64,000 bases of DNA from Chiloscyllium plagiosum (GCF_004010195.1 NC_057751.1:12416908-12480907), one strand, 5' to 3'. Positions 12,608 to 63,436 are shown, counted from the first letter of the stretch. Notes: a model not told the origin generated them from the letters alone. A program made the numbers and translations.

Positions 12608-12815
12608 GACATTAACAAACATATCGACTTGGACCTCATTTACCAACCTCTCAGAAAAAGTGATGTCACCCACCACAACAGGCCAAGACACATAAATAGC
12701 AAGCTGGACAGAACATCAGCGCTTCACTGGAGGCTCACTGATGATGTTACCTAGCATGCCGATGAAACATCTGAGATCAAATTGATCAGCTCAATGAGCA
12801 AACTTGCAACCGGAA
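12608..12815 (+). mobile_element. Penelope-like element 3' terminus with hammerhead-like motif
   Basis: Encodes INKHIDLDLIYQPLRK (cf. SINKHIDLDPIYRPLQ at 32.9 kb). ctca-CTGATGA...GAAACATC-tgag at 12734-12775. Confidence 0.8.
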
Positions 12816-14090
12816 ACAGTTTATCTTTACCAGTCCTGTGTATTCCTGTATTGGATCTTGTTCATCACCAGACTTATCAATTTTTTTTGGAATATTGGCT
12901 ACTGTTCAGGTTTTAATGGAGAAATATTTTGCTTGATTCTTTAACAGTCTGAAAAGCTGACTCTTAGAAATATTTACATATTGTCAGAATTGCATGTCGT
13001 TGTTCAGGTTTGCCATGGTTGGTGCTTTAGATAATTTCACAACTTTTTTTTTAACTGACTTTGTTGGACATGTTAAGTTTTTGGGTGCTCCCTAGACGTT
13101 TGTATGTAGGCTTGTCACCTGTGAATAAATGAACTCTTGGAGGTTATATGACTTTTCCTTATACTTTAGCCATTGTTAGCTAATGTATCCAGCCTTGTGA
13201 TGCACTGCCTTTGTCTGCCAGATGTAAAGCAAAAAGACTCATTACCCCATTGAATGAAGCTTGATTGACAGCCAAACACCATTTTCCACCATTTTTAGGT
13301 GTTTTCAAATTTGCGATTGAGAAATCAAAGAAAATGATTTTAAAATGTCATTTTTAATATCCTGGTCCTTTTCATTCTGGTGATAGAGCTTCAATTCCTG
13401 GCAGCCTCCAGGCTAGTCATGTAGGGGTGGCAACCATATTTACAAGGTAGATGCCAAATGTGCTATGGCAGTGACCGTACAGAAAGGGAAGGCTGAAGTC
13501 AGCAATGAAATCAGTGAAAGTGCTGTAAAGTGTTTAAGCATATGAAACATGACATAGAGCGGAATTAACCAGCATTATGCAGTTCTGATTCCACAGCCAT
13601 GTGTGCTTATTGATGAAAAATGATTGGAATCAACTTGATCCTTTCCAAATTAAATCTCTTAAGTGTTAGAGAGTAAAATGCACTTTGGATCCAGATTAAA
13701 ACAAAGCCAAGGTCATCATTAGATGGGGCTAACAAGTAACAAATTAAATTTGGTTTTCATCAGTAAAATATGGCAATAATATATCAACAAAGATTGCCAA
13801 TGCTCAGCATTCTTGGAATTGGGACAACCTGTGAGTATCGTGTGATGGGTTGCTGAAATATTTTCAGTTTGAAACAATGGTGTACATGTTTTTCATGCCT
13901 TCCATGTTGTAAAACACTTCACAGCACAGTTATTAAACAAGATTTCACACTGAGCCAAGTGAGGAGATATTAGGACAAATGGCCCAAAAGCTTGGTCAAC
14001 AAGTTATCTTTGAACAAGTGAATTAAAATATAAGAGAGAAGGGAGTGGCAAAGAGATTTCGGGAGGATTGCCATAGCTTCAGTCAAGAGA

Positions 14091-14380
14091 TAGATTAGAT
14101 TACTTACAGTGTGGAAACAGGCCCTTCAGCCTAACAAGTCCACACCAACCCTCCGAAGAACAACCCACCCAGACCCATTCCCCTACATTTACCCCTTCAC
14201 CTAACACTACGGGCAATTTAGCATGGCCAATTCACCTAACCTGCACATCTTTAGACTGTTGGAGGAAACCCACTAAGACACGGGGAGAACGTGCAAACTC
14301 CACACTGACGGTTGCCCAAGGCGGGATTTGAACCTGGGTCTCTGGTGCTGTGAGGCAGCAGTGCTAGCCACCGTGCCACC
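14091..14380 (-). mobile_element. HE1-like SINE (within a decayed L2-like tail)
   Basis: tagattagattacttacagtgtggaaacaggccc ... gctagccaccgtgccacc. Confidence 0.9.
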
Positions 14381-17019
14381 TGGGGATAGTGAAGGGCATC
14401 ATCACCAATGGCTGGATGAATTATTTACAGAACCTCAGTAAAGGTTGACACCTCTACCTTTGACAGGCACCCTGCTCTCAACTCAAAACTCGAACTTGGT
14501 AATGCAATCCAAGATCACAATGGGCCCATAGTTGGTATAGTTTTCCTGAAATGAAAATGTTTAAACTGATGGACTGTCTCCATATTACCGTGATTGTGGA
14601 ACAGTTGCCAAATGTTCTCTCAAAAGAACAAGGAGTTTTGTCCGTATCCTGACATCATTTATCCATCACCCAGCACCATCTCAATGCTTTGTTGATCTGC
14701 TTTCCTTTCTACGAGGCCAGATGGTGAACTAACTGGCCCCATTTGCCCATGAAGCAATAACCACTGCACCGAAAGTAATTAATGGTTATGGTATGCTCTT
14801 TCTGATATTTTAAGCATATGAAACATGTCAGAAAAATGAGAGTTAGTTCTTTCTTAATTGGCACTGTTGTTTTTGTTCATTTTGGTCTACTCTTTCCTCA
14901 CCGACCGACTACAGTTTCAGTGCAGACATTGTATTCTAGTGGCTATCAATTATCAGAGTAGACTAATTAAGTGGTGCCATTACCACAGCATATTTTGCAA
15001 AAATGTGCTCCTAGGGGGAAACCTGCTCACTGGGAGTTCATAACTGGATTAATTTTAATGGAAAGAAAATCACAGAGTGGGTATCTTGTGCATGCTTTTG
15101 CAGTATAGACTTCAGACTTGGAGAACCAAGGCTCCCCAACTGAAGCATAATTTTCGAAAACCAGCCTTTTAGACTTCAAGTCTAAAAAAAAATAACATCT
15201 CTTACAATCAATAAGTCTCACAATTCTTTATAGGAACTGGCATATTAACTTCCCAGTGTTGTTGACATAGGAGGCACTACAATCACACCAGTAAAAATAT
15301 TTTTCAGCCATGATCCTGAAAGTAACAGTAACTAGTTTGACATTCATTTAAAATACATATCATTTTGCGGAGCCATGCAGCCAAAGAATTGGAGAAGGTG
15401 CAAGAGAAATATTATTCAGTTTGTACGAGGGATACAGACTTCAAATTACCTGGCAAAGCCATAACTAGGAACATTTTGCTTCAAGCAGACAAGGTTACGG
15501 AACGATAATAGACATTTTCAAGATCATGAAAGGAGGATGCTTTTGATGCCACCATGGCAGATATGTCAATAATCCAAAAAACAAGATGTAAATGTTTGGG
15601 CAGAAAAGCAAGAGATGAAATGACGTGACGTATGTTTCCTGAGCAACTTGAATTAAACGGGATGTACCACGTGCAAGGACAGAGAAGAAAAGGATAATTC
15701 ATGATGAATTGGCATCAGACAGTAGAGATCTCTTTGCTGGTTAGCCGATGCTGGAGGAACAGCAGAGAGTAAACTGTTTTGTCCTCTTCATGCATCTCTA
15801 AGGAATATGATGTCTAAGTCATTCATCATTATATTTATGGTATGGAATCTCATTGCCCTGTGTATCAATGGTAGATTTAATGATACAAGTAGCCTCTACT
15901 TTCACAGCAGAATCACTGTTGTATTCTACATAGGAGGCATTAAATAGCAGTCAGGCAATGTCCTGAAATCATGCACCGCTACTGAACATGCAGTTTTTCT
16001 GGATTATCAAATTTGCTGTTTATTCAGTGAAATAGTTTCTGTAAGCTTTGCAAAGTGAACACACGTTCATAGCACTGGGTGTGAAGCATTTTGGTCCAAC
16101 TAATGCCAATAAAGGTACTTTATCAATCCTGTGTAAATTTGACTAATTGTACATTGTAACTGCAAGCTACTTAAGCTAAAATTGTTTTTTCTCAAGTGAC
16201 CAACTCCTGTTTCAGTTACTTCTGCAGACAATCAAATTGTTGGTACTTGTGCATCACTTTTAATATACTCCATGCAGAAGAATAAAAAGGGGATTATTTG
16301 TAATTACTATGAATTCTCATTCACTTTAAACACTTGCTCTTCTGTCTACTTCTGTGGATTTTGCATGCAATTTAATTGTGAAGTAATTAGTACTTATGGT
16401 GTCTTTGGACTTGAAAGAGTTACTGAGCACAGAAACAGAAAGAATTGAATTAATCTGGAAAGAACTATAATCACTGAGCTTCAGCTTCATTGCGGTCTCG
16501 ATGGTGCCTTGCAGAGTAGACTTTCAGCGAACAAGGCACTACTAAGCATTTGCTATTGAAAGAAAAAAATGTTCAAATTGACAGAATGGAGAATTAAAAT
16601 AAAATATAGACTGCTTAGAAAAAGAAAAATCCATGTTCCTGATTAGTTTCATAGCACACAGACTGTAATCATCTCTCATGCTGTGGCTTCATTTGAAAAT
16701 GTCTTATAGGTGCTTTTTGTTTACTTGGGATGGGCATGAGTGCTCACAGGAAATCACTATGCTTCATGAAGTATTCCAGTGTTCCACTGTCCCAAGTTTA
16801 CACATAGAAATTCATCATATTGAGAAATACACTTGTTGATTGATCATATATTTGAAAATATGTCTTTTACCTGAAACAATTGGTGTCTATATGTATGTAA
16901 AAAAACACAGCATCATCGATATTCTTGTTAGAATCAATCACTGCTGCCTGCTCTATGTTAACCATGGAAAATTGTTACATGATCAGCACATTAGAGAAAT
17001 AGCCAGACTGAGTACAGCT

Positions 17020-17225
17020 AGGAGAAAATGAGGACTGCAAATGCTGGAGATCAAAGTTGAGAGTGTGGTGCTGGAAAAGCACAGCAGGTCAGGCAGCATC
17101 ATCGGGGGAGAATTGATATTTAAGGCATAAACCCTTGCACCAGGAGGGCTTATTCCCGAAACGTCAATTCTCCTACTCCTCAGATGCTGCCTGACCTGCT
17201 GTGCTTTTCCAGCGACACACTCTCG
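17020..17225 (-). mobile_element. Palindromic Penelope-derived mini-element with 15 bp TSD
   Basis: TSD agactgagtacagct at 17005-17019 and 17226-17240; internal inverted arms gctggaaaagcacagcaggtcaggcagcatc / gatgctgcctgacctgctgtgcttttccagc. Confidence 0.88.
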
Positions 17226-17559
17226 AGACTGAGTACAGCTGCCTGCCAGCATGTGAGTTGCTCATTCCATGTGTCTTGGCTCCATCATCATGAAAACACC
17301 TTCAACCCCAAACACTTCGCCATCCTGTGATCATGAATTTGACCTCATGCTCTCTGCTCTTATTTCACTCCCCATCCTGACTCAAAAGCAAACTTATCCT
17401 CACTGTTCGGTCTGTACTCATGGGAAATACGCTGGTGTACTTTATGGTTTCTGCATTGCGTACAATTTTTTTCTCACCATTCAGACTAACATTGGATCAC
17501 CCTCATTCTTGTGATTGCCCACAAGTTCATTGAGTTTAGAAACTCAAGTGTTTTCAAAG

Positions 17560-18135: not shown

Positions 18136-18661
18136 AAATAAATGCAAAATTTAGATGTTTGTTGATTGATTGATTACAACTTAGGAACACATTTTGGATG
18201 CAATTCAACAGTTCGTTCGGTCAAAACCACGGATGATGCAAAATAGCAAGAGTGTGAAGTCTATCAGACCACAGTTTCATCACCTGTGAAGACGTTGGAA
18301 ACATCAAAATCTTTGAAAACCAAACTTTTTGATCCTGTAGCATTTTCTTCAGTGTAATTCCAGATATATGTCCTCAATACAAGAACTTTGAAATTTGTCT
18401 GTAAAATACATGGAGTCCAAACTTCAGAGCAGCTCAAATTCATTCTGAACCTTCAGGTACATAACTTTTCAGTTTATTCTGTTGTATTGGTGCATGGTGC
18501 AGATGGTTATGATTTTTTTCACTTATTGGAAAAATACAGCTGATTGGGAATGTATCACAAGATCACGACATGCACACGTTAATTCTGAACCTGGTTTTCA
18601 TGCTCCAAGAAGTCACTTGAATCCCATTACTCACAATGGAATGTCAGCAATATGGATGTCA

Positions 18662-26365: not shown

Positions 26366-26518
26366 AGTTGGGGGAAATAATATACATCCTCTGTCAAGGT
26401 GCCCAAATAATTTAGCCCTCAATATTTCTAATCAAGCCATTTAGACATGTTAGGATACATCTCTGGACTTGAAACGAGACCTTCTGGTCCAGAGGTAAGG
26501 ACATGAGCAGTTGCGCCA

Positions 26519-27488
26519 CTCACAAACTTGGTTGAGTTTTTTGAGGAAGTAACAAAGAGGATTGATGAGGGCATAGCGGTAGATGTGATCTATATGGACT
26601 TCAGTAAGGCGTTCGACAAGGTTCCCCATGGGAGACTGGTAAGCAAGGTTAGATCTCATGGAATAAACGGAGAACTAGCCATTTGGCTACAGAACTGGCT
26701 CAAAAGTAGAAGGCAGAGGGTGGTGGTGGAGGGTTGGTTTTCAGACTGGAGGCCTGTGACCAGTAGAGTGCCACAAGGATCGGTGCTGGGTCCTCTACTT
26801 TTTGTCATTTACATAAATGATTTGGATGCAAGCATAAGAGGTACAGTTAGTAAGTTTGCAAATTACACCAAAATTGGAGGTGTAGTGGACAGTAAAGAAG
26901 GTTACCTCACATTACAACAGAATCTTGACTAGATGTACCAATGGGCCGAGAAGTGGCAGATGGAGTTTAATTCAGATAAATGCAAGGTGCTGCATTTTGG
27001 GAAAGCAAACCTTACCAGGACTTATACACTTAATGGTAAGGTCCTAAGGAGTGTTGCTGAACAAAGAGACCTTGGAGTGCAGGTAGATAGGATAGCAAAG
27101 AAGGTGTAGGGGTGACCTTATAGAGGTTTACAAAATTATGAGGGGCATGGGGGGATAAATAGACAAAGTCTTTTCCCTGGGGTGTGGAAATCCAGAACTG
27201 GAGGGCATAGGTTTAGGGTGAGAGGGGAAAGATATAAAAGGGACCTAAGGGGCAACTTTTTCACACAGAGGGTGGTACGTGTATGGAATGAGCTGCCAGA
27301 GGAAGTGGTGGAGGCTGGTACAATTGCAAAATTTAAGAGACATTTGGATGGATATATGAATAGGAAGGGTTTGGAGGGATATGGGCCAGGTACTAGCAGG
27401 TGGGACTAGATTGCGCTGGGATATCTGGTCGGCATGGACGGGTTGGACCAAAGGGTCTGTTTCCATGATGTACATCTCTATGACTCTA
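26519..27488 (+). mobile_element. Young CR1 LINE, 5'-truncated, internal deletion near 27.1 kb
   Basis: DFSKAFDKVPH..VPQGSVLGPLLFVIYINDLD..KFANYTK; 3' tail catctctatgactcta. Confidence 0.95.
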
Positions 27489-28319
27489 AGAGCCCTCAAG
27501 AAATCAGCTATTAAATGCAAAGTGCATTGAGCATTTCTTCCTCTCGATCAACTCTACAGTGGTTTTGTCTGAACCTTAAAGGGGCCTACAAACTTACGCT
27601 TGCATTAGCATTTGTAACATAGCAAACTGCCTGTAAGTTCTTAAGAGGAGGGGTTTCCTGGACAGCTCCTCAAAGGTTTCCACCCCCAGTAAAATGGGAG
27701 AGTTAGTGGCATGGAGAGCATTGAGCTGTAACAATAGCTGTCAACTCGAAACAAAATGATGGCTGACTCTCATGTGGTCAAGCAGCATTGTGGTGACCCC
27801 ACATAACAGGGGAAAGTTAAAAGAAAAAGAAATCTGCTATACTTGTGTTTAATTTCCATGTTTTTGTTTCATTTCGCAACTAAGACACTTCAGATTATTC
27901 TGAGTTGGCAAAGTAAACCATGTGCATAGAAGTAGCACAGGGGACTTGATTTGTATTATTACTGATTTTCAATGTGTTAATTGCAAGCATTGGATGCCAT
28001 TTATTTGAGTTAGTCTCCAATGCAGTGCTGGAAACAAAGAAGATGAAATGGAATATCAATTTTATTTTACTCATTGGCAATGCTGCTAATGTCATGAAAT
28101 ATCACTACAAAACCATACTACTGCAGAAAGAAGCCAGTGGTATTTAGTCAGATATCAAATTGGTGCCTCAGGTAATCCCATCCTGAATGTACTAGCAGTG
28201 ATGCAGGACTGTTGTAGTGGGGGAGAGGGAGACTACACAGGATCTATGTCAGTCATGACACAGTGGGAACATTCCAGCTGTATTCAGAATCAGAACATTG
28301 TAATTCAAACGCTGCTCAA

Positions 28320-29487: not shown

Positions 29488-30400
29488 TGTTATGATCAGG
29501 ATGGGGGGAATAAACTGATTCCTTTCCTTGTCTCAATCCCTACTGGTCACAACAAATGTAGAACTTTAAAGAAGGTGGAACTGAAAATTATATCTGAGAC
29601 TGTGTTTAGTTCCGGATCAGAATCAAGTCAGCCATATTAATAACGTAACAAATAAATAACTAGTGTATGGCAAACAGAACTTCTTGAAGCACAAGATGTA
29701 AATGTTTTTAGCAACTGTGAAACTGTGCAAAAAGATATAGTAATCCCTCTCACAAGATAACACATGCACACAATCTTGCAGCCTTGGAAAATTGCATAAC
29801 ATTTTGCACAATATGACATTCCTTCAACCAAGTAGAATTAAATTCAGGAGAAAAAGAATCAGATTTTCCCAATCAGTCTGCAGCTGAAATCACTTTGCCC
29901 TCCAGCGTTTGGCACCAGAGTTTTCTTGACAGGCTACAGCTGGTTACATTCTCTATTCCCGGAGAAAGTAATGTTGATTCAAAATCCTCATTTTGGAAAC
30001 CTTCCTTTTGGTGATGAGGTCTTCCAGTGCGTTTTCAGTTCACAAACTTGAGGAGGGTTTCAATGAAATGGAGAGAAAGAGGGCAAAAACTATTGCTCTT
30101 GAAGCAAGTTGCCTTGGACTTTCTGTGTTCCAATCCAATACATTCATTCTATTCACAAGTTGGGTCAGGTGATCCCTCTGGGATGCAGTGTGGATTTAAG
30201 TGGCTGTAGTCATGAAGTTTATGTTCATATATGTGCCACAAGTTGGGTCGGGTGACCCCTCTGGGATGCAGTGTGGACTTAAGTGGCTGTAGTCATGAAG
30301 TTTATGTTCCACATTTTTCTCTGATGCTTTGTCATAGACCCATCTATGTCTCGTCAATGATTTTCTAAATTAATAGTTCATATGTCATAACTTTATAACA
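29488..30400. mobile_element. Solo LTR with perfect 4 bp TSD
   Basis: acta|TGTTATGA...TTATAACA|acta (TSD 29484-29487 and 30401-30404); terminal inverted TGTTAT/ATAACA. Confidence 0.8.
30154..30309 (+). repeat. Tandem duplication, two 73 bp units with 83 bp period
   Basis: cacaagttgggtc..ggatgcagtgtgga..catgaagtttatgttc at 30154-30226 and 30237-30309. Confidence 0.95.
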
Positions 30401-31447: not shown

Positions 31448-32697
31448 TAGAGTCATAGACTCATAGAGATGTGCAGCGTGGAAACAGACCCTTTGGTCCA
31501 ACCCATCCATGCCGATCAGATATCCCAACCCAGTCTAGTCCCACCTGCCAGCACCCAGCCCATATCCCTCCAAACCCTTCCTATTCATATACCCATCCAA
31601 ATGCCTCTTAAAAGTTGCAATTGTACCAGCCTCCACCACTTCCTCTGGCAGCTCATTCCATGCACGTACCACCCTCTGTGTGAAAAGGTTGCCCCTTAAG
31701 TCTCTTTTATGTCTTTCCCCTCTCACCCTAAACCTATGCCCTCTAGTTCTGGACTCCCCAGGGAAAAGACTTTGGCTATTTACCCTATCCATGCTCCTCA
31801 TAATTTTGTAAACCTCTATAAGGTCATACCTCGGCCTCCGACGTTCCAGGGAAAACAGCCCCAGTCTGTTCAGCCTCTCCCTGTAGCTCAAATCCTCCAA
31901 CCCTGGCAACATCCTTGTAAATTTTTTCTGAACCCTTTCACGTTTCACAACATCCTTCTGATAGTAAGGGGACCAGAATTGCATGCAGTATTCCAAAAAT
32001 GGCCAACCAATGTCCTGTACAGCCGCAACATGGCCTCCCAACACCTGTACTCAATACTCTGATGGATAAAGGAAACCATACCAAATGCCTTCTTCACTAT
32101 CCTATCCACCTGCGACTCCACTTTCAAGGAGCTATGAACCTGCACTCCAAGGTCTCTTTGTTCAGCAACACTCCCCAGGACCTTACCATTAAGTGTATAA
32201 GTCCGACTAAGATTTGCTTTCCCAAAATGCAGCACCTCTCATTTATCTGAATTAAACTCCATCTGCCACTTCTCAGCCCATTAGCCCATCTGGTCAAGGT
32301 CCTGTTGTAATCTGAGGTAACCCTCTTTGCTGTCTACTACACCTCCAATTTTGGTGTAATTTGCAAACTTACTAACTGTACCTCTTATGCTCGCATCCAA
32401 ATCATTTATGTAAATGACAAAAAGTAGAGGACCCAGCATCAATCGTTGTGGCACTCCACTGGTCACAGGCCTCCAGTCTGAAAAATAATGCTCCACCACC
32501 ATCCTGTCTTCTACCTTTCAGCCAGTTCTGTATCCAAATGGCTAGTTCTCCCTGTATTCCATGAGATCTAACCTTGCTAATCAGTCTCCCATGGGGAACC
32601 TTGTTGAACGCTTTACTGATGTTCATATAGATCACATCTACCGTTCTGCCCTCATCAATCCTCTTTGTTACTTTCTCAAAAAACTCAATCAAGTTTG
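31448..32697 (-). mobile_element. Young CR1 LINE, 5'-truncated
   Basis: RT and C-terminal ORF pieces (31535..32044, 31945..32235, 32281..32502, 32402..32728); tagagtcataga tail. Confidence 0.95.
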
Positions 32698-32727
32698 ATT
32701 GGAAGGGGAGTAGCCAGTTCTCATACA

Positions 32728-33130
32728 AAACATTACATAGGACAAACAGGAAGACAGCTAACGATCCGTATCCATGAACACCAACTAGTCACGAAACGAC
32801 ACGACCAGCTATCCTTAGTAGCCACACACGTGGATGACAAGCAACATGTGTTCAACTGGGACAACACTACTATTATAGGACAAGCCAAACAGAGAACAGC
32901 CAGGGAATTCCTAGAGGCATGGCACTCATCCACAGATTCTATCAACAAACACATCGACCTGGACCCAATATACCGGCCACTGCAGCGGACAGCTGGAACT
33001 GACAACCTGAAGCAGCAGAGACAAACCACTATAAATGCCGGAGGAAACATCACAGAAGCACTTCACAGGAGGCTACCAAGCACTGAGGATGTCACCTAGA
33101 CAGCGGACGAAACGTCTGCAACACAAATTC
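32728..33130 (+). mobile_element. Penelope-like element 3' fragment: GIY-YIG endonuclease piece plus hammerhead motif
   Basis: KHYIGQTGRQLTIRIHEH...AREFLEAWHS..SINKHIDLDPIY; 14 bp direct repeat ccagttctcataca at 32714-32727 and 33131-33144. Confidence 0.92.
33080..33119 (+). ncRNA. Minimal type I hammerhead ribozyme motif (PLE-associated)
   Basis: gca-CTGAGGA-t-gtc...gac-GAA-ACGT-C-tgc: intact core, 3 bp stem I, stem II closing gtc/gac, palindromic ACGT in place of helix III. Confidence 0.75.
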
Positions 33131-33356
33131 CCAGTTCTCATACAGCAGGTTTTCTAATTTCTTTTAGCTGCAGCAGTCAGAATCTGTTTGGGGTCTCAGA
33201 AGAGCTGGGGCTTCAGTAAATGATTCCCAGCTGTTACTTTCTCAAAAATCTCTCTTGATGTTGTTTCCTTCTGGATTGGATTACTACAGGTAAGAATCTT
33301 TGTCTGAATTTATGTTTTTGCCAAGAGTTTATGGGATGTTACTATATTGGAACAGT

Positions 33357-33999: not shown

Positions 34000-35551
34000 C
34001 AGTTAATTAGTACAGGAACTGTCTCTATTATTCAGTTGAGTTTTCCAATGGTTGTTATTCTGAACTCCACTGTCTTTTCTTTGTTTTTTAACAATAGTGT
34101 TTAAATAAATTGTGATTTGCTTAACATCGAGTAGTTTGACTGTTGTTTCACATCTGGAACACACACTTCACATCTACCATTAAAATAAGAAAAATTTAGG
34201 GTCCAGGTTATCTTCTTAAAATATTTCAAGGGGGTCTGGTCTGGCCTATCACAAGATCCATTGGCCTTCAAGGCTGGAAGCATTAGGCCATCCTAGGTTC
34301 CTTTAGCTAATGACTTTCCAGCAAACCTTGCATGTGCTGTCAATTCAGAGTTGGTCTCAGGTCTGCTTATAACGGCACAGTTGTCATTGTCCAAAAGTTC
34401 ACTGATACTGGCCCATCTCATGTGAGAATAGCCACTTGAGCTAAGTATTGGATAGTACTAGAGGTTATGTAATAATGTGACAGCAAATACTCTGAGAGAG
34501 GAGTGAACTTAAAGAGCATGAACACATGGAAGTGAGTGGAACACCATTCTTCAACAGCAGTGTAGATAGTGAATTCAGCAGCATAAATCAAATGTTTGCA
34601 TTTTGTTCTGCAATGGTCTTTTTAATCGCTGTTTGTGATAATAAAGTTTGCATTTCAACACAAAAAGGAACAATTTAGTCAAGCAGACTGCAATTACTAT
34701 CAGTTATCATTTCCCATGCTCCATAACCACTTCTAAATAGCCAGCTCAATGTCCCAAATTTCCTTCAGCAACCCAAGCAGCCCTACTCCTTACTTTAAAA
34801 AGATGAACATTTACTATTTCTGTAAATATGAACTGACAGTGGATGTATAGGGGAACCAGTGGATGTGGTGTATTACAGAAGGCTTACAATACGGTCCCAT
34901 ACAAGAGGTTAGTAAAACAAATTAGGCCACATTAGATAGGAATAATGTACTGGCATGGATTGAAGATAGGCTCACAGAATGAAAACAGATTTGGGATGAA
35001 CATGCCATTCTCAGGTTGGCAGACTGTAAGCAGTGGGTGCCACAGAGCTTGGATCCCAGCTATTCACAATCTATATCAATGACTTTGATGCATCAATTAA
35101 CAGTAATATTTACAAGTTTGCAGATGACATAAACTGGGAGAGGATACATGTGAAAATAATGCAAAGAAATTCAAGGGAATTAAAAGGGCAAAAATGAGGC
35201 AGATGAAATATATTATGGATTAGTGGTGGGGTGCAAAATATTTCTTAAACACCAAGAGATTGGACAAACTTGACATGTTATGAATTGAGGAGGTGATGAG
35301 ACAGGTTGACGAAGGTCAAGCAGTGTATGTGGTGTACATGGACTTCAGCAAGGCATTTGATAGGGTTCCCCATGGTGGGCTCATTCATAAAGTGAGGAGG
35401 TATGGGATACTGGAAGATTTAGCTATCTGGGTTCAGAATTGCTTGGCTGACAGAAGGCAGAGAGTGGTTGTTGATGGAAAGTATTCTGCCTGGATGGCAG
35501 TGGTGAATGGTATCCCGCAGGGCTCTGTTCTTGGGCCCCTGCTCTTTGTAG

Positions 35552-35949
35552 AGTCATAGAGGTGTACAGCATGGAAACAGACCCTTCGGTCCAACCCGTC
35601 CATGCCGACCAGATATCCCAACCCAATCTAGTCCCACCTGCCAGCACCCAGCCCATATCCCTCCAAACCCTTCTTATTCATATACCCATCCAAATGCCTC
35701 TTAAATGTTGCAATTGTACCAGCCTCCACCACATCCTCTGGCAGCTCATTCCATACACAAGCCACCCTCTGCGTGAAAAAGTTGCCCTTTAGGTCGTTTT
35801 TATATCTTTCCCCTCTCACCCTAAATCTGTGCCCTCTAGTTCTGGACTTGCCGACCCCAGATAAAAGACTTTGTCTATTTATCCTATCCATGCCACTCAT
35901 AGTTTTGTAAACCTCTATAACATCACCCCTCAGCCTGCGACGCTCCAGG
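35552..35949 (-). mobile_element. Young CR1 3' end nested in CR1
   Basis: SRTRGHRFRVRGERYK..GYGLGAGRWD; short gtag duplication at the junctions. Confidence 0.92.
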
Positions 35950-36814
35950 GTAGTTTTTATAAATGACTTGGATGAGGCGGTTGAGGAGTGGGCTAGTCAA
36001 TTTGCCAGTATCGAGGGGTATTGCAGGCTACAGCACAACATTGACAATATACAGAGCTGGGCTGAGAAATGGCAGATGGAGTTCAACCTGGATAAATGTG
36101 ATGTGATGTGATGCATTTTGGAAGGTCGAACTTAAATACTGAATATAGGATTAAAAACAGGGTTCTTGGCCGTGTGGAGGAACAGAGGGATCTTGATGTT
36201 CAAGTGCATATGTCCCTCAAAGTTGCCACCCAAGTGGATTAGGTTGTTAAGAAAGCATATGGTGTTTTGGTTTTCATTAACAGGGCGATTGAGTTTAAGA
36301 GCTCTGAGGTTTTGCTTCAGGTCTACAAAACCCTAGTGGGACCACATGTGGAATATCATGTCCAGTTCTGGTCACCCTATTATCGGAAAGATGTGGAGGC
36401 TTTGGAAAGGGTGAAAAGGAGGTTTACCAGGATGCTGCCTGGACTCGAGTGCTTATCTTACGAGGAGAGGTTGACTGAGCTCAGTCTTTTCTGGAGAGAA
36501 GAAGGAAGAGAGGTGACCTGATCAAGGTGTACAAGGTAATGAGAGGCATGGATAGAGCCGATAGCCAGAGACTTTTCCTCAGGACAGGATTGACTGCCAC
36601 GAGGGGTCATAAGGTGTTAGGAGGAAGATATAGAGGAGACATCAAAGGTAGGTTTTTTAAGCAGAGAGTTGTGAGCGCATGGAATGCGTTGCTAACTGTA
36701 GTGGTGGAAACAGAGTCATTAGGGACATTTAAGCGACTGCTGGACACGCACAAGGACAACAATGAATTGAGGGGAGCATAGGTTAGGTTATTTTATTTTA
36801 GGTTAGGATTAATG

Positions 36815-37416: not shown

Positions 37417-37508
37417 AAGGCCTGAAGAAGAGTTACACCTGAACCATTGACGTCTCCACCTTCTGATGCTGCCTGGCTTGCTGTGTTCTTCCAGCTCCTG
37501 CTTGTCTA
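37417..37508 (+). mobile_element. Short PLE terminal fragment with decayed hammerhead motif
   Basis: cCTGAAGAagagttacacctGAAccattga..ctgatgctgcctggcttgctgtgttcttccagc; actttg on both sides. Confidence 0.65.
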
Positions 37509-38877: not shown

Positions 38878-39090
38878 AAAAGCAAAGTACTGCAGATGCT
38901 AGAAACCTGAAACAAATGACCGTTGCGCTGAAGAAACTTAGCAAGTCTGATAGCATTTGGGGAAAGAGGAACAAAGTTAATGTTTTGAACATTCTGAAGA
39001 AGTCAAGCCAGGTTCAAAATGTTAACTCTACTTCTCTTCACAGATACTCCCAAACCTGCCCACTGTTGCCAGTGTACTCTGCGTTTTCTT
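38878..39090. mobile_element. Decayed palindromic PLE terminal element
   Basis: aagcaaagtactgcagatgctag..aaagttaatgttttgaac-attCTGAAGAagtc..ggttcaaaatgttaact: inverted arms around a decayed hammerhead-like centre. Confidence 0.6.
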
Positions 39091-41329
39091 CATTTTTCTT
39101 TCAGTTGCTTCCTTGCCATCAGGAAGTACTGGGGAGGATTAAACTGTTAAATCAGTGACAGCTTGTAATAGTTGAAAGGAGCCCTCTGCCAATTTGTTCC
39201 AGTCTGTGTATTCCTTCCACTTGTGGCTGAATGAAGCTCCAAAGGGTGAAGCCATCGATGATCTCTTTTCACTGCTCATTCAGTCGTGAACATCAGCACT
39301 TGTCCGAGAAGGGAGGTGGTTGTGTCTTCACTCTCAGGTAATGTCACAGACAGTGTTACAATGAAAATTTATTTTTCTTCCCGTTGCAAAGACTTGCTAA
39401 GCCATGCAGCAGTTTTAGCATGACGGAGCTCTTGGTTTAGAAAACAAAACTCTCCTTTGTGTGAAGCATGCATCAAGTCCCATTATTGAGCAGTTCTTAC
39501 GGTTGAATGTAGAAACTGTTTCCTTTCTAATGCAGCAATGAAGAGAGTTGAACCTTCTTCAGCATTTCAGAACCAGACAGAACTCATTTATGAAAGTCCC
39601 TCTATTTTGACAAACTTGGTTTTGCTTTTGGAGGCTGAGGCTGTCCGCAGAATGAGAGCAAGGTAGATTTCATTCCCTCTTGCTGAAGAGAACAAGGCAC
39701 AGTGAGCACGCTGCTTTGCTTAGATTACAGATTTCTCCATGGTGGAATGAGCATTAACCTCACAAGCACTGTTCTTTCTAAGGACAAGTTAACTTTGTAT
39801 TATTCTGAAATAGAAATGATTCAACTCCTGCAATTTCCAGTTCTTGAGTGACCACAAATGGAAAATCATAAAGACCCAATGTCCAGTATCTTGTCAATGT
39901 GAATATTCCTTCTTCATCCAGCTGTCTGTTATCCCACTTACATTTGAAATACCATAGTAGTACTCCCCTTCAACAGTATCTGCTGATGACATGATTCATC
40001 TGTGTTCATTAAACCTTTTGCAGCACTGCATCCAGATCCTTTGGACTTGGTTCCTGCCATTGAATTCCATAGGTATGTATCCCTTGTGCTTTCTGAGCTC
40101 ATTTTGGAAGGATCTTTTGGCTCTCTCCAGGCACAGGACATTCCTCCCTCCTTTGTAGTATTCGAAAAGCATGGAGTCTGTGCTGACTCCTGTGTTGTAC
40201 TATCCTTCACTATTCTGCAGATTAGATCGACTTTCTGCATAACTGCGAGCAGCAGCTCCAACCACAACCAAAGTATCCTGATGTTGGCCAAATGCATCAG
40301 CAGGGACCAATCAACAGAATAGTTAGCACTGTCTGGAGGGTGAACTTATAGAAACAGGCAGGTATTGCCAAACTAGCATGCTGCCTACACTGCAACCAAT
40401 TGTCATGAGTTAATCACCCCCACTTTTAGGCACTGTTGAGTTTAGCCCCTGCAATCACTCTTTGTATTCCCATTTGTACCGTACGTTTATGTAATACAAT
40501 TTCACATCTGTTTGTTGTTTTATGAATAAAGCTTGGACCTAACTCAACAAAAACAGCCAAGGAAGCCTACATGTAAGCAATGTTTCACAGTAACACAAAA
40601 CTTTTACCACACCACATGAGCACTGCCTGTAACTAAGAGCAGTCATCATTTGCCTATGACAAATGATGATGGCTTTTTGTGGACAGTCATATCATCCATA
40701 GATGACTTGCAAATATGTTAATACAACAAAAAGAACCAGAATTAGGACTAACTACTGCAACTGAGCTCAGGAGAAATTACATTTCTCTAACTTGCATCAT
40801 GACTCGGTTGATTTTTGTGCTTAATGGAAACTTCTTCCTGCAATACAAATGACTGGCATTTTCCTTGACATAACTCATCAGATCAGAATTTGGTACATTG
40901 ATCTATTTTTTTAATAGGAACATAGGATGAGTAAAGTAATAACTGGTTGCTTCATCTCTTCCTTATGGCTGTGGCAATGTCTTGCTGTGATGATTAAACC
41001 ATTGAGAATTAGCTGCAATTCTGAATTGAGGAAGTTGTGGCAGAATTTCCCTGTCTCACATTTGTTCAACATTTCTCTGTCTCCACATAGATAACAGACC
41101 AAGTGACAGAGTAGCACAAACCCTGAACTGGAGACATGTTGGGCTCGATTATGATAGGAAAATACTGATGAGGGCTCACGGATACCAGCTTCTCATGACC
41201 ACTCACCAGCAATTAGGCACAAAATTAGAGCTGTTGCAGTTCATGTTTTCATGTTCCTCTGTGAGCTTTGGGTGGGATTGCAATGCAGATTCACCAGAAG
41301 GGTACTTGGGTTGTGTGAATTAATTTTTC

Positions 41330-41546
41330 TGAAAATGTGTTGCTGGAAAAGCGCAGCAGGTCAGGCAGCATCCAGGGAACAGGAGAATCGACGTTTCGGG
41401 CATAAGCCCTTCTTCAGGTTCCTGAAGAAGGGCTTATGCCCGAAACATCGATTCTCCTGTTCCCTGAATGCTGCCTGACCTGCTGCGCTTTTCCAGCAAC
41501 ACATTTTCAGCTCTGATCTCCAGCATCTGCAGACCTCACTTTCTCC
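41330..41546 (+). mobile_element. Young palindromic Penelope-derived mini-element with 14 bp TSD
   Basis: TSD tgaattaatttttc at 41316-41329 and 41547-41560; 90 bp arms 41329-41418 / 41421-41510 with 2 mismatches. Confidence 0.95.
41390..41417 (-). ncRNA. Minimal hammerhead ribozyme core on the SFRP1 sense strand
   Basis: Minus strand reads CTGAAGA-A-GGGC-TTAT-GCCC-GAA-ACGT-C. Confidence 0.7.
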
Positions 41547-51236: not shown

Positions 51237-52818
51237 GATAAACTAAATATTTGTTCTTTTCCTGGTGCCGTGCCACCTGCTGAGGCTGTCAAGCTGGAGG
51301 AGTAGAATTAACATGCACAGGCGAAATAAAGAGCTGCTGTACAGCCCCACCAACTTAATGGACTGTATCTCTGCACTGTGTTGACCTGCCACATGTTGTT
51401 AACGTCTGCTTACTCTTCTTTCAAGCTCATTCAGCCAGACTTGGTTCTCATCTCTTACTGATTAAAATAAAAATTTCAAATGAAAAAGAAGAAATGTCAC
51501 TCACTGATAACTTGATATAGTAAAGAGTTGCAGTTTGTGCCAATTGCTGAAAGAAATTAACTGAAGTCTTAGTGAACCTGTAAAATAGCAATTTTTGTTC
51601 ATGCAACATGTTATAAGTCGAGAATATATAAGACCAAGAGCTTTTATTTGCCCTTGAACTGGAGGCAGATGGGAGTGACAGGGGCTGCAATACAGGACAA
51701 TGTAAATAAAACAACTCACCTCTGAGACAAAATTCTTCTTTCACCTTCAACATCCAATTGATTTTCTTTGTAATTTCTCTTTTGTCACTTTATTTCATCA
51801 ATGTTACTGATATTATTTGCTACCTCTCAAGCTCTAACCACAATATTACCTGCATCCTCAATGTGACGAAAATTAAAATACTCTGACTGACACTTTGATG
51901 AAAGACTTCAAGCAGCACAAGAGAGGAGCTGCCTTCTGCAATTGGCATCTGTTTACGTACTGAACAGAAGCAGACTGGTGAGTACGGATAAGTTTTCCTC
52001 ATACTCTAATTATAGTAAATAGGTTCTAAAGTTGTCAAATGGTTGGTCAGCTCAGCCAAGTGCAGTGTACATTATGTAGTATGTGCGAAGTTATGGAGCT
52101 GCCGTGTCCCAGTCACATCTGCAGCTGCACAAGCATGAACTTTGGGTTTCAAGCTTGAGCAGTGGCTGAATTCACTGTTGTGGATGGTATATTTAGAGAA
52201 GTGGTTCCACCAAATGGTAGGCAGCAAGAGGATGGGTAACCATTAGGTAGGCATTGCAGGAGTCCTCTGAGTATTACCATGCTTGCTAATTGATGTTCAA
52301 TTTTGGGTGATGTTATAGTCTGAGGGCATCAATGTGACTCCAGGATAGTATGTTGCCTATCTGGTACCAAGTAAATGCTACAGGTTATTCTTCTGAAGTG
52401 TGGGTGATCAACCAGCGGTCATGGTTCAGGTTGGCACCAATGACCTAGGTAGGAATGGGAATGAAGATCTCAAGATTACCTCCAACCCCACATGCTATTG
52501 TCCTTCAAGAAATGAGTGATGAACACTGACCTTGGGGAGGGTTTAAACTAGATTGGCAGGGGGTTGGAACCTGAAGGCACATTCGGACCAAAAGATGAAA
52601 GGAAGAAACTAACCAAGTGTCTCTGAGAAAGGAAGCAGAGGCTAAAAAATATATAATACAAAAGGTGAACAGTATTAAAAGGTATATGTAAGGCATATAG
52701 TGAATAAAGTCAGTGAGCTGAGGGCACAGAGAGACATAATGCAGTTGGGTGTAGTATCATTATGGAAAAAGACAAAGATAGAATAGAAGTAAAATTTCTC
52801 AATTGGGTCATTGTAAAC

Positions 52819-52906
52819 CTGAGGAAGGGCATGTGCCCGAAACGTCGAATCTCCTTTTCCCTAGATGCTGTCTGACCTGCTGTGCTGTTCCAGCAATAAA
52901 GTTTCA
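52819..52906 (+). mobile_element. 88 bp PLE-derived insert beginning at an intact hammerhead core, 11 bp TSD
   Basis: TSD tcattgtaaac at 52808-52818 and 52907-52917; CTGAGGA-A-GGGC-ATGT-GCCC-GAA-ACGT-C at 52819-52846. Confidence 0.88.
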
Positions 52907-55064: not shown

Positions 55065-55473
55065 CACAACGGCTGGAGGAAGAGCACCTCATCTTCCACC
55101 TAGGAACCCTCCAACCACAAGGGATGAACTCAGATTTCTCCAGTTTCCTCATTTCCCCTCCCCCTACCTTGTCTCAGTCCCAACCCTCAAACTCAGCAAT
55201 CTTCCTAACCTGCAATCTTCTTCCTGACCTCTCCGCCCCCACTCCCACTCCGGCCTATCACCCTCACCTTGACCACCTTCCACCTATCGCATTTCCAACA
55301 CCCCTCCCCCAAGTCCCTCCTCCCTACCTTTTATCTTAGCCTGCTGGACANNNNNNNNNNNNNNNNNNNNNNNNNNNNNNNNNNNNNNNNNNNNNNNNNN
55401 NNNNNNNNNNNNNNNNNTTTCCAGCAACACATTTTCAGCTCTGATCTCCAGCATCTGCAGTCCTCACTTTCTC
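55065..55473 (+). mobile_element. Penelope-like 3' terminus (GIY-YIG C-terminus plus terminal repeat) spanning an assembly gap
   Basis: QRLEEEHLIFHLGTLQPQGMNSDF; same end sequence as the 41.3 kb element; cttaa on both sides; splits CR1 ..gagtgacttaa|ttgaggtgtac. Confidence 0.85.
55351..55417. other. Assembly gap (67 N)
   Basis: Run of n. Confidence 1.
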
Positions 55474-55849
55474 CTTAATTGAGGTGTACATGGTAAGGAG
55501 AGATAGAATGGACAGGAAAGATCTGTTGCCTCTTGAGGAAAAGTCAATTACCAGGAATCACAGATTTAAGGTGAATAGTAGCATGGTTAGAGGGGACACA
55601 AAGACATTTTTATTTTCCCAGAGGATGGAGGTTTTCTGGAATTTGCTGCTCATTTGAAACTCTCAACTCATTTAAAGATAACCTGGATCTGCACCTGAAG
55701 CACTGTAACTTGCAAAGCCAGGTTCTGGGAAGTGAGTAAGTGAGTTTATTTAGATGAGGTTGACATTATAGGTTGAATGACCTCTTTCAGTGCTGTAACT
55801 TCTTTGTGGTTCTGGTTTCCCAGGATCTCAGATCATGAAGCCTTCTTCC

Positions 55850-57030: not shown

Positions 57031-57074
57031 TCCAGATTAAACAAGTCCAAATAAATAATAGAGATGGCCTTGAC

Positions 57075-59469: not shown

Positions 59470-61215
59470 GAATCTGTAGAATCACAAGAGGATTATGTTG
59501 CAGAAGGTGGCTATTTGGCCCATCCTGTCTGCACTGGCTCTCCAAATGAACATTGTGACTTCTGCCTTTTCCCTAGACCTTTGCATTGTTTCTGTTCAAA
59601 TACTCATCCAGTGACCTCTTGAATTCTTCAACTAAACTTGCCTCCGCCACACTTCCAGACCCAAATACTCATTGTGTGAAAATATATTTTCAACATCACA
59701 TTTGCCACTTTTGTAAAACACTTCAGATCTGTGCCCTCTTGGCCTGATCCTTGTACAAACAGGAACAGTTTTGCCCTATCTATTTGATCCAGCGCCCTGA
59801 TGATTTTGAAAATTTCCACCAGATCGCCTCTTAACTTCTTTCCTCCAAGGTGAATAGGCCCAAACTGTGCAATCTATCCTTACAACTTAAGTTTCTCATC
59901 ATTGTAACTATTCTCGTAAATCATTTCTGTACTGTCTCTCATGTGTTCAAGTACTTCCTATAGCATGTTATGTAGGATTCATGTCACAATAATTGTGCTG
60001 AGTCCCACAAGTGTCATCTTGTATTCTATGTGGCAAAAGTGCGTACTACAGATGCTGGAGGTTGGAGTCAAGATTAGAGTGGTGCTGGAAAAGCACAAGA
60101 CAGGCAGCATCTGAGGAGCAGGAAAATCGACATTTCGGGCAAAAGCCCTTCATCAGGAATCAGTCCTCATAAAGTGCTTTTGCCCGAAATGTCTGACCTG
60201 CTGTGCTTTACCAGCACCACTCTTGTACTTTATGTCCCTATTATTAAAGCTGAGGACACTGTATACTTTATCATCTGGCCTCTCTATTTTGCCCTGCCAC
60301 TTTGAATAATCTGTGCAACTATACAGCTCGATCCTTCTGTTCCTGCATCTCATTAAGAATTGTACCTTTTTTTTATTTTATCAGTCTGTGCTGTTCTAAT
60401 CAAAATGCAACACCTCACACTCACTCAAACTTCATCTACCCTTTCCGCTGACTTAGCTACGTCCTTTAAAATTCTGCAATGTCCTTTTGGTAGGTTGTAA
60501 TGCTTCCTACATTTGTATCATTTGCAAACTTTGACCTATCCCCTGCACAGCACGACTGAGATCTTGAATATATATCAGACAAAATGAGTGTCCCAACACT
60601 GACCCCAAAGGAATTCCATGACAAACCTCCCTCCCCCCTAAAAATTATTTATCGATACTCTCCTATCGGTCGGCCACTCCTGTATCCATATCGCCTTTTT
60701 CTTCATGAGCTATAACATTTCTCACGTCTTTCATGGGCATGGTATCAAATGCCTTTCAAAAGTCCACTCACTCCATATCAACCCAATGCCCTCATCAACC
60801 CTTTCTGTTAATTTTTCAAAAATCTGCAACAAGTTATTTCGCCTTTAGTAATCCATTCTGGCTCTTCCTAATCAACCTACTGTTTTCCATGTGACCATTA
60901 ATGTTATGCTGAATAATTGTTTCTTGAAGCTTCTCTGCAACTGAAGTTAAACAGACCGCTATGCAATTGCTGAGTTTATTCTCACAACATTTCTAGAACA
61001 ATGTTGTAATGTTTGCAATTCTGCAGCACTTTGACATTTCCTGTAGGTCTAGAGAAGATGACTTTGGCCAGGACCTCTGCAATTTCCACTCTCACTTCTT
61101 TCAATATCCTTGGAAGCATCTTATCCACTATTAGTGCCTTGTCAACTTTCAGTACTGACAGTCTATCCAACAATTTATCCTTATCAGTTTTGAAGCCTTG
61201 TACTGACAGTGTTTC
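59470..61215 (-). mobile_element. Old CR1 LINE
   Basis: LKVDKA..MLPRILKEVRVEIAEVLA (60982..61173); 3' tail at ~59480. Confidence 0.8.
60032..60220 (-). mobile_element. Palindromic PLE-derived mini-element with 15 bp TSD (2 mismatches)
   Basis: tcttgtattctatgt 60017-60031 / tcttgtactttatgt 60221-60235; minus strand attc-CTGATGA-A-GGGC-TTTT-GCCC-GAAATGTC. Confidence 0.85.
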
Positions 61216-61349
61216 CTCCTTAAGAATCAGACAACTGTTGGTGAGTTTAACTTCATGGTTACCACAACTCAGGCAAGGTTGAGAAGGCAGGCCTTCCTGG
61301 TGATCTCAGACAGTATGAAAATAGAACCAATGCTGCCATCATGACTCCA

Positions 61350-62029
61350 CAGGTAGTTCTGCTATAACGCGTGTTTCTTAAGCAATTTGGCTATAAAACG
61401 CAATTTGAAGATTAGATTCCCTACAGTCTAGAAACAGGCCCTTTGATCCAACAAGTTTAGCATGACCAATTCACCTGGCCTGCACATCTTTGGATTGTGG
61501 GAGGAAACCAACACAGACATGGGGAGAATGTGAAAACTCCACACAGACAATTGCCCAAGATAGGAATCAAATTCAGGGCCCTGGTGCTATGAGGCAGCAG
61601 TACTAACCACTGAGCCACTGTGCTGCCCCAGAATTGCAGACTTGTTTTATAAAGTGAACTCTTGTTCACTGTTAAGTGATTTTCCCAGCACTAGGTGTCA
61701 TGGTGTGTGGATGACTGGACTCTGCATCAGTATCACTTGCTTTCTGGTGAAGAACTTTGTGAAAGGTACAAGTGCTGTAGTCAGTAATTTAGTGTTAAAG
61801 TGTTAAATTTATTGCATTATTTCATTAAATAAATCTTTAAATCATATATTTTAAACTGTGCAATGTTTGTCTTGGCAAATTACTATTTTTGTTTTAATTT
61901 TTCCTGGTATTTTTGGTGATTTGCCGTGAACCGTCTTTTTCCCATCGGGACCATGATTTCAATTGCACAATTTTCCACAACATGGCACCACACAGGAACA
62001 CAGTTATGGCATTAAAAGAGAACTCCCTT
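61350..62029. mobile_element. Possible Tc1/mariner (pogo/Tigger-like) non-autonomous element
   Basis: Left CAGGTAGTTCTGCTATAACGC (61350-61370) vs right gcattaaaagagaactccctt (62009-62029): 15/21 inverted match; no clean TA TSD. Confidence 0.45.
61410..61628 (-). mobile_element. HE1-like SINE (internally deleted)
   Basis: gattagattccctacag..ggagaatgtg..gcagcagtactaaccactgagccac. Confidence 0.85.
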
Positions 62030-62854
62030 TTCATTGCAAACCAGCTGTTCAGCCTACTAAGCTAATCGACCCAAATAATTCACTCAATATAATGCTCTGT
62101 ATCATGATAGGAAGCATAGCACCTTCATCCTGCATCTCCCACTCCCAATCTACCCTCTCAAGGTACATCTAGCAATAGGACCTGAGCAGGTCACTAGATT
62201 AATGAAATCAAATGACCATGCTGTATCTTGATCATTACTCTCTTCGTAACCTTCTTCTATTGTAAAGCAATAAAGGTGTGAGTTGGGAAAGGATTGAAGA
62301 ATGGCAATCAAATTTAACCTTCTCTGTGTCTCTGGTTAAATCACAGCTTACCTTTCTGTAGAATGTGATGATAATCTGCAGAAATAATTATTCTGTTTCA
62401 ATCATGTGCACATAGACAGCAAACCTACAATCTGAAGGAAAGCACCACAGCCAAGGCCAATCCATATCAAGTCAGCGTACAAAGAAAGCTCTCATCCCTG
62501 AAAGAAGAAACAGTGACACTGGCAACATGAGATAGACTGGTCTGATGCATGTTACATACTTCAAAATGGAGGTCCAGTGTGACCAGTATAGTCATTCGTA
62601 GGTGTTTTCCAGATATTAGTTTCTCTTTTTAGTGAGTATTCTTCCTGCAATGCTTTTCATAACCTTAGGACATTGCAAAATACTTTACAGATAATGAAAT
62701 GCTCCCTCACTCCAGTCATTGTAACACAGGTAATACTGTAGTTTCCAAACAGCAAACTCCAACAAACAAGAGCATAGGGATAAGATGATTGAGTCATTTA
62801 TTTATGTGGTCGAGGAATAATGGAGGTAATGATAAAAAGTTTTGAAGAATGCAA

Positions 62855-63030
62855 AGGCACTAGTGTCCATGAAGGAAGGAAATCTGCTGTCCTTACCTGA
62901 TCAGGCCTGCATGTGACTCCAGACCCATAGCAATGTAATTGACTTGTCACTGTCCTCTGAGCAATTAGGGATGGGCAATAAATGCTGGCCGGTCCAATGA
63001 TGCCCACATTCCATGAACGAATGTAAAAAA
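62855..63030 (+). mobile_element. SINE/LINE 3' tail (family of 43.5 kb)
   Basis: aggaaatctgctgtccttacc..catgtgactccagaccc..gggatgggcaataaatgctggcc..atgcccacattccatgaacgaatgtaaaaaa. Confidence 0.75.
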
Positions 63031-63287
63031 ACAATTCATGTGCAGACATATGAAGGATTTGATGTTGCATCTGACAAGCAGCACCTCCTACAGTCCTGTT
63101 TTGGGACTGCACAGAAGTATCAACCGAGATTAAGTGCTGAAGCCTCTAAGGTAGTACTTGCATCCACAATATTCCAACTGGAAGAGAGCCATGACTATAA
63201 AGTGGAGGGGAATAGGTGGCGTCGAGAGAGTCACTTAGGAGAGGAATCTTGGTTGAGTTTCCCCTCCCCTCCCTTGACTGGGAATGC

Positions 63288-63436
63288 TCCACCAACTACT
63301 TGATGAAGGAGCAGTGCTCCGAAAGCTAGTGCTTCCAAATAAACCTGTTGGAGTATAACCTGGTGTTGTGTGATTTTTAACTTTGTCCACCCCACCGCCC
63401 CACCCCACCCAAGGTCCAGCACCGGCACCTCCAAAT
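63288..63436 (+). mobile_element. Short PLE-like terminal insert with hammerhead motif and perfect 15 bp TSD
   Basis: TSD cttgactgggaatgc at 63273-63287 and 63437-63451; tac-TTGATGA-A-GGAGC-agt-GCTCC-GAA-AGCT-A-gtg at 63297-63331. Confidence 0.85.

Follow-up and report, generated by a model that had tools for sequence, protein, structure and literature searches.

A 64,000-nucleotide stretch of the Chiloscyllium plagiosum genome (GCF_004010195.1 NC_057751.1:12416908-12480907; hereafter the window, numbered from its first letter) carries, in intron 2 of an SFRP1-like gene, a series of inserts with minimal hammerhead ribozyme motifs. We consider it probable that these inserts are truncated, likely inert pseudo-long terminal repeats (pLTRs) of three families of Penelope-like elements (PLEs), the shortest of them likely being run-off complementary DNAs (cDNAs) of a capped, uncleaved RNA that starts just before the ribozyme core. 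Such motifs belong to a known class, and the copies in this intron probably have no effect. What is likely to be new is the pile-up of Neptune-type 5' ends just before the core, 30-32 nt below a promoter-like box and with an extra G at the joint, so that the left ends of the stubs, as read from genomic copies, likely record the capped start of the element RNA at the ribozyme.

The motif was searched for with a descriptor comprising CTGANGA, an optional extra base, a stem of at least three pairs, GAA and a four-base palindrome, with 100 order-2 shuffles of the window as chance control. The exact core and palindrome occur three times in the window, at 33083(+), 41417(-) and 52819(+) only, and in none of the shuffles; an intermediate level of relaxation gave five against a shuffle mean of 0.02, and one change allowed in core and palindrome gave six against a mean of 0.12 and a maximum of 1. 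Rfam at its gathering threshold gave no match in the window. Every place at which the original prediction had put a hammerhead holds a motif or a relic of one, in numbers above those of the shuffles. Of the cores that it listed, those at 33083, 41417 and 52819 are exact, the others (41422, 60156, 63300, the arms at 17.1 kb and 12738) being altered. The further decayed versions that it placed at 37.4 and 39.0 kb are indeed members of two older lineages, with alignment scores of 129 and 51 against shuffle maxima of 22. Absent from it were the 3-4 bp helix I that all three families have and two further inserts, one a longer copy (55.06-55.48 kb) and one consisting of a tail only (560-607).

Genome-wide, the exact motif occurs 87,506 times for family A, 14,648 for family B and 18,482 for family C, with none for the reversed controls, and the generic core pattern 231,495 times (about 230,000 cores) against 1,301 in its control. 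In all three families the sequence upstream of the motif runs into a GIY-YIG frame, and longer copies bear a reverse transcriptase (RT), placing the hammerhead in the pLTR of an element with both activities. Longer family B copies encode RT (Pfam RVT_1, 1.3e-9) and a GIY-YIG motif in one frame; family A frames contain RT motifs, a CX2-5CxxC linker and GIY-YIG (E 1.8e-4, just under the cut-off); and a family C element (L154) has the layout hammerhead-open reading frame (ORF)-hammerhead. Pfam gave no match for a 159-aa family B frame, one 414-aa family B frame and two RT fragments of families A and C. The linker precedes the GIY-YIG endonuclease (EN) motif in 11/22 cases in family A, in 1/4 of family C (broken copies, a weak count for this family) and in 0/37 of family B. 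A zinc-finger-type linker in this place is the criterion separating Neptune from the Penelope/Poseidon clade (PMC8557442; this and the other published sources are cited for their accessible parts), and since it is present in A and C and not in B, A and C are classed on this criterion as Neptune-type and B as Poseidon-type. Minimal type I hammerheads of several PLE families had been predicted, and core, RT and GIY-YIG were all found. A 792-codon open frame made of a tandemly repeated family A endonuclease fragment was also observed at one locus (L140:1980-4355).

The core reads CUGANGA...GAAA..UH, with a G10.1-C11.1 pair and one extra base after A9. Helix III is replaced by a palindrome (15.2-16.2), ACGU in families A and B and AGCU in family C, with computed self-duplex energies of -3.1 and -4.5 kcal/mol. 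In families B and C helix I has 3 bp; it has 4 bp in A3 and, in A1/A2, 2 bp, a U-U and 1 bp, with letters that differ per family. The predicted cut follows GUC in families A and B and CUA in family C. Stems and palindrome differ among families with pairing retained, as the proposed covariation requires, and among 192 copies of the A lineage 3/7 and 2/7 altered copies carry double changes in helix II, these being numbers of copies and not of events. In family B, a TATA-like box and the first hammerhead half lie within the last ORF codons, with the stop codon in loop II (window 33030-33099), so that coding and ribozyme constraints coincide.

On these features the window motif is of the minimal hammerhead type described in 2014 from pseudo-LTRs of metazoan PLEs (Cervera and de la Pena 2014, PMC4209133). 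Both share the core, the extra base after A9, the G10.1-C11.1 pair, the palindromic 15.2-16.2 without helix III, a short helix I, mostly solo copies from truncated elements, and inverted pairs on opposite strands. They differ in helix II, which has 4-7 bp here, and in abundance: the generic pattern gives about 230,000 cores in this genome, compared with totals of about 4,000 in coelacanth and 9,000 in Xenopus that were obtained there with another descriptor; in the accessible text of PMC4209133 the transcript start is not mapped and sharks were not found named. Dimer cleavage of minimal hammerheads is reviewed in PMC6765202 and PMC6155905.

The evidence for a defined RNA start comes from the 5' ends of the copies, counted relative to C3 of the hammerhead core. 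Among 82 intact-core copies of family A and 49 of family C, many start within 11 nt of C3, with clusters at about -4 in family A and about -8 in family C. In a core-unbiased sample of 748,717 bases (the window, the next 100 kb and six random blocks), from which all tail-bearing matches were taken, the 114 family A matches start 40 times at -10 to 0, 27 times at +1 to +27, four times at +28 to +34, 15 times beyond +34, seven times at -50 to -11 and 21 times beyond -50. The filter for long copies used only the EN-peptide flag upstream, matches at gaps also being dropped. Removal of matches with an EN frame upstream, which are older long copies without a matching reference, and of matches at gaps left 35 starts at -10 to 0 (four and one, respectively, having been dropped there; 3.2 per nt), 25 inside the core (0.9 per nt) and five at -50 to -11 (0.13 per nt). 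BLAST ends are noisy, and part of the late starts comes from older lineages. No family A copy of the unbiased sample begins at the predicted ribozyme cut site (+28/29; 0/114), which rules out stubs that begin at the cut. A splice acceptor at the pile-up, as in Drosophila Penelope, is ruled out by long copies without AG there.

A promoter-like box stands at a regular distance above these starts. Among 87 family C copies TATAAA occurs 35 times, 31 of them 30 or 32 nt upstream of the start; among 196 family A copies TTATCT occurs 74 times, 69 of them 29-34 nt upstream of the start. In family B, TA[TC]AAA lies 53 nt above C3 in 62 of 75 occurrences. In families A and C the spacing of the box is retained across subfamilies with different spacer sequence.

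The joint itself carries an excess of G. In family C, matches in which another base replaces the element's own were tallied by eye in the first 100 listed rows per position: position -9, where long copies have C, holds 78 G, 9 A and 13 T among the first 100 listed of 1,986 matches, compared with 18 G, 20 A and 62 T at -10 (first 100 listed of 1,461) and 28 G, 18 C and 54 T at -8 (first 100 listed of 1,227); the G:A ratio at -9 differs from that at -10 with a Fisher p of 9e-7. Of 30 unselected family C loci, four carry T and prove to be long copies bearing a point change; 22 carry G, and 15 of these are inverted structures. In inverted family C loci with G, the end of the partner arm is spread over -10 to +64 in 30/30 (15 of which were picked for G), and because it varies in this way the G is not an endonuclease target preference. 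In family A, position -5 has 65 G and 35 A among 100 of 15,812 matches where 40:60 is expected, and here the extra G is suggestive only. For full-length L1, an additional G at the 5' joint has been attributed to the cap (PMC11702581), and by this analogy the excess at the joint is as expected for a reverse-transcribed cap.

At the other end of the inserts, two alternative 3' ends are found about 40-45 nt apart, near +54 and +100 in family A; in family C, 44/92 genomic 3' ends lie 52-66 nt and 32/92 lie 92-103 nt below the core, the distal one coinciding with the ORF start codon. Family C tails contain ATTAAA or AATAAA in 65 of 82 cases, and the hexamer is followed by a GU-rich stretch (window 63338-63343; L085:1539-1559). 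In a single-cell poly(A) RNA run of a related organism (X21), 1,404 of the 3,218 reads aligned to a family C copy have poly(A) loose ends at L085:1556-1559. Their A tails begin 12-15 nt past the hexamer and 27-30 nt past the predicted cut site, across which read depth continues; these polyadenylated reads may be either element or host transcripts. The poly(A) site thus lies upstream of both 3' ends where copying starts, and 82 of 91 family C copies end at least 45 nt below the core, past this site. Since priming in family C takes place below the poly(A) site, a full-length copy would need read-through RNA, a circle or an end-to-end jump.

These features could be explained by the following series of events. 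RNA polymerase II would initiate at -4 (family A) or -8 (family C), just before the ribozyme core. The element protein would nick the target, and reverse transcription would begin internally, 55-100 nt below the core, pass the uncut ribozyme, arrive at the cap and add a C. The end of the cDNA would then be joined by microhomology to the target or to a second cDNA. Two run-off cDNAs from opposite nicks may account for the head-to-head inserts of the window (17.1, 41.4 and 60.1 kb), in each of which one tail is short and the other long or partial. The ribozyme would be selected only in active elements, cleaving near the cap as a dimer or with help from the protein. At three loci (L087, L224 and L302), family C starts are joined head-to-head to an inverted family A tail, which suggests that RNAs of two different elements can serve as templates during a single insertion.

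Several observations weigh against this reading. The family A cluster is broad (-10 to 0), and the unbiased sample of family C is small, with 23 matches and two short starts at -10 to 0 after filtering. For family B the TATA spacing predicts a start near -23 (or -18), and 5' ends do not accumulate around it: in a sample that locus choice enriched for long copies, 44 of 59 reach at least 100 nt upstream. TTATCT is not a canonical TATA box, and the RNA alignments, from 3'-type libraries and to contigs of related organisms, show no clustered molecule starts; loose read ends at -4 are confounded by differences among subfamilies and were set aside. The family A control at -6 has a raw ratio (63 G, 37 A) like that at -5; it drops to 26:37 after removal of 37 rows of one subfamily variant, in which the G at -6 is present in long copies (seen in L141). 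Target duplications were recorded in 9/43 solo loci by a first test and in 23/43 by a relaxed one, which did not show the G to be mostly untemplated. In 10 of 14 solo family A stubs with a duplication the G lies inside it (two rows being one duplicated locus and one a tail artefact); pairing of an extra cDNA C with a G of the target would explain this, and so would a target preference. In inverted family C loci the G is the partner arm's next letter in 16/30 and not in 14. A strictly untemplated G is therefore shown in a minority. Finally, the copies stem from few masters, and motif counts are not independent.

The same ends could arise if the element RNA were a longer read-through transcript on which RT stalled once past the folded hammerhead, with microhomology joints and an ATT-type target preference fixing the position and the G coming from a terminal-transferase habit. 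The breadth of the family A cluster is compatible with this, as are joints that share G and 1-5 element letters with the target duplication, the preference of the anole enzyme for ATT, which matches the family A start (PMC11167929), and the predicted folding of an A3 stub into a hammerhead from position -4. Family C fits it less well: its G excess is limited to one position, holds at inverted joints, which are no nick sites, and lies 30-32 nt below TATAAA, and its start is 5 nt outside helix I and without ATT. We regard stalling as unlikely on balance, and transcription start at the ribozyme as the better account of the ends. Far less likely still is the original proposal of several non-autonomous ribozyme mini-elements, SINE-like (short interspersed nuclear element-like) or retrozyme-like, with their own masters. 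Recurrent 5' and 3' ends and target duplications do make the short inserts resemble a defined unit of 110-140 bp, and PLE-derived retrozymes have been reported from one chondrichthyan genome (bioRxiv 10.64898/2026.07.22.740005). Against this, G-start stubs are spread across at least five family A and at least six family C loop variants common to long EN-bearing copies, the upstream promoter box is missing from the stubs, and lengths form a gradient into long copies that join GIY-YIG frames and RT. A SINE-like element would have its own master and private variants, and the variants here are common to short and long copies; a retrozyme would form head-to-tail arrays, and no tandem array with the motif occurs in the window, where copies are solo or head-to-head. 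Because short and long copies have the same loop and stem variants, the short inserts are best read as truncated insertion products of the autonomous families and not as separate non-autonomous families.

It is scarcely credible that any of the copies has been domesticated as an intronic ribozyme acting on the SFRP1-like pre-mRNA. RECK-type hammerheads are an example of such domestication, which would call for sense-strand motifs with canonical helices and conservation at the orthologous position. The 90-kb intron has only two intact-core motifs on the sense strand (41417 and 60156), the first locked in a hairpin of about 90 bp and the second with an altered palindrome. Motif density equals the genome mean (five generic cores in the window, two sense and three antisense in intron 2, against 4.2 expected, with 37 in 585,834 random bases of the genome), which gives no support to the interest that the original prediction had implied for the host pre-mRNA. 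In the inserted cores, non-CpG letters are 94-100% identical to the best reference and CpG letters 73-87%, and all 11 core letters are retained in 47/67 copies of family A and 6/14 of family C. Inserted copies thus decay neutrally, with CpG loss, and selection would therefore act on the active lineages and not on the inserts. Published minimal hammerheads, moreover, do not cut as monomers (PMC4209133).

The preferred reading, run-off copying of a capped RNA, could be extended by a first step like that of long terminal repeat (LTR) retroelements, a possibility that we put forward only tentatively. The unit RNA would be R-U5-ORF-U3-R-poly(A) with a hammerhead in each R. Priming would occur below the 5' R only, giving a strong-stop cDNA that ends at the cap, and the palindromic helix III would pair two R copies for strand transfer or for circularisation by cutting and ligation; tens of thousands of stubs would then be failed transfers that map the start to the base. 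In LTR retroelements, with their U3-R-U5 order (U3 and U5 being the unique 3' and 5' regions and R the repeat), the promoter lies upstream of the start, the poly(A) site shortly downstream and priming just beyond, and minus-strand strong-stop DNA ends at the cap. The same order of promoter, start, poly(A) site and priming here would lead to a short first cDNA ending at the cap, which is a comparison of how the elements work and not of membership. The elements here differ in being target-primed, with no tRNA primer and no integrase, and strand transfer is inferred only.

The closest biochemical comparison is PAc, the Poseidon element of Anolis carolinensis (Frangieh et al. 2024, PMC11167929), in which reverse transcription in vitro starts internally at two sites, both DNA strands are extended, uncut RNA serves as template and the ribozyme is active only with protein. 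The elements here resemble PAc (PMC11167929) in two internal RT starts that give an optional tail, in extension of both strands, in the uncut RNA template and in a hammerhead close to the beginning of the ORF. In PAc (PMC11167929) that beginning lies within stem II; in family C it coincides with the second 3' end, about 94 nt below the core, and in family B the core overlaps the last ORF codons. Joints derived from a cap, and a poly(A) site that precedes the RT starts, were not found described in the accessible parts of that report. With the EN-bearing clades Neptune and Penelope/Poseidon (Craig et al. 2021, PMC8557442; Arkhipova et al. 2013, PMC3846280) the families share RT with a C-terminal GIY-YIG, heavy 5' truncation, head-to-head inverted copies and a tail at one end, and a putative TATA box and initiator are present in the rotifer pLTR (PMC3846280). 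The promoter is thus putative in the rotifer (PMC3846280), and in Drosophila Penelope it is TATA-less and internal, with an intron (PMC2377424). Inversions were ascribed to self-priming on an antisense template in the rotifer paper (PMC3846280), whereas the joints here would fit two sense-templated cDNAs joined end to end. In a literature search with subscription journals, Repbase and Dfam outside its reach, no shark report and no cap, TATA, poly(A) or strong-stop evidence in PLEs was found.

The placement of the inserts in a probable SFRP1 intron, as originally predicted, was borne out. Exon 3 of the SFRP1-like gene (NTR module, 7911..8236, minus strand; Pfam NTR E 2.7e-13) encodes a peptide 100% identical to an SFRP1-like cluster of Chiloscyllium punctatum, with no match in a PDB sequence search. 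Intron 2, about 90 kb in total, runs from 8237 to the window end with the gene on the minus strand, and holds every insert listed in the original prediction. Exons 2 and 1 lie on the minus strand about 34 and 52 kb past the window end (about 98 and 116 kb from its start). A cluster search with exon 1 names SFRP5/SFRP3 at 0.90-0.93, the exon 3 match being more specific.

Family A is represented by inserts of several forms. Head-to-head inverted inserts on both strands lie at 17020..17225 (15-bp target duplication at 17005 and 17226), where the CTGA core half is missing in both arms and a stem pair is broken in the plus arm, and at 41329..41546 (14-bp duplication at 41316 and 41547), whose 90-nt arms are 98% complementary. 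In the latter, the minus arm has an intact core (41417-41391) and a short tail, the plus arm has a core (41422-41448) with ACAT instead of ACGT and a long tail, and the whole is predicted to fold into a single long hairpin of -194 kcal/mol. A third insert on both strands, at 60078..60220, has a minus arm from position -4 (60160) with G at 60161, a core at 60156-60130(-) with ATGT instead of ACGT, and a partial inverted arm at 60170-60220. The solo stub at 52819..52906 (+; 11-bp duplication at 52808 and 52907) starts at its intact core, 52819-52845, and lacks the 5' strand of helix I. A longer copy at 55069..55475 (+) comprises the end of the GIY-YIG frame, the promoter region and a long tail, its hammerhead hidden by a 67-base N gap (55351-55417); such gaps are frequent inside inverted PLE structures at the loci examined, and the genome counts are therefore lower bounds. 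A tail-only, coreless fragment at 560..607 (+) lies outside the span originally described, downstream of the gene. Older relatives are a decayed A-lineage subfamily copy with a GGGT/ACCC stem and broken core at 37422..37500 (+; scores of 129 and 115 to two genomic copies against a shuffle maximum of 22-23) and a heavily decayed copy of a still older A-related lineage, also with a broken core, at 38994..39070 (+; score 51 to two genomic copies against 21-22).

Family B is represented by a 5'-truncated Poseidon-type element at 32698..33135 (+, antisense to the gene), with an open frame, 150 scored genomic relatives and RT and EN in longer copies. Its left limit is the end of a neighbouring long interspersed nuclear element (LINE) repeat, which this Penelope fragment adjoins; its GIY-YIG frame stops at TAG 33097-33099, and its core (33083-33115) is intact, with a helix I of 3 bp and a predicted cut after 33116. 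A decayed, older Poseidon-type 3' end of the same lineage lies at about 12610..12810 (+; outer limits approximate), where a core relic (12738-12770) has an ACAT palindrome and a weak stem; it aligns with six older family B copies and matches the 33-kb copy by BLAST. Family C is represented by a solo stub at 63288..63436 (+, antisense to the gene; 15-bp duplication at 63273 and 63437), the RT frame of this family being known from L154. Its core (63300-63327) reads TTGATGA (C3 to T), and AATAAA (63338-63343) is followed by a long tail. Target duplications of 11-15 bp thus mark four window inserts, at 17.0, 41.3, 52.8 and 63.3 kb.

Solo inserts in intron 2 (window 8237-64000 and the next 34 kb) comprise seven antisense to the gene, on the plus strand (12.7, 33.1, 37.4, 39.0, 52.8, 55.1 and 63.3 kb), and one on the minus strand (97.3 kb), numbers too small to establish a bias. 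Fragments that we take to be CR1-type LINE and SINE-like repeats are abundant (26500-27500, 31450-32700, 35280-36000 and others), and an 83-bp tandem repeat in two copies lies at 30154-30309.

With about one core per 15 kb, this genome holds a fossil record of Penelope reverse transcription, and the record bears on how PLEs are copied and why they need a hammerhead. The joints would give a base-level prediction of the transcript start, and would place the ribozyme in the 32-37 nt that follow the cap; they also indicate that uncut RNA may serve as template in vivo, as previously shown in vitro only. Family C stubs, of which there are about 18,000 or more, may also supply host transcripts with poly(A) sites. 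For the elements themselves, a functional poly(A) site that precedes the sites of priming would force reliance on an end-to-end jump or on read-through RNA for full-length copying.

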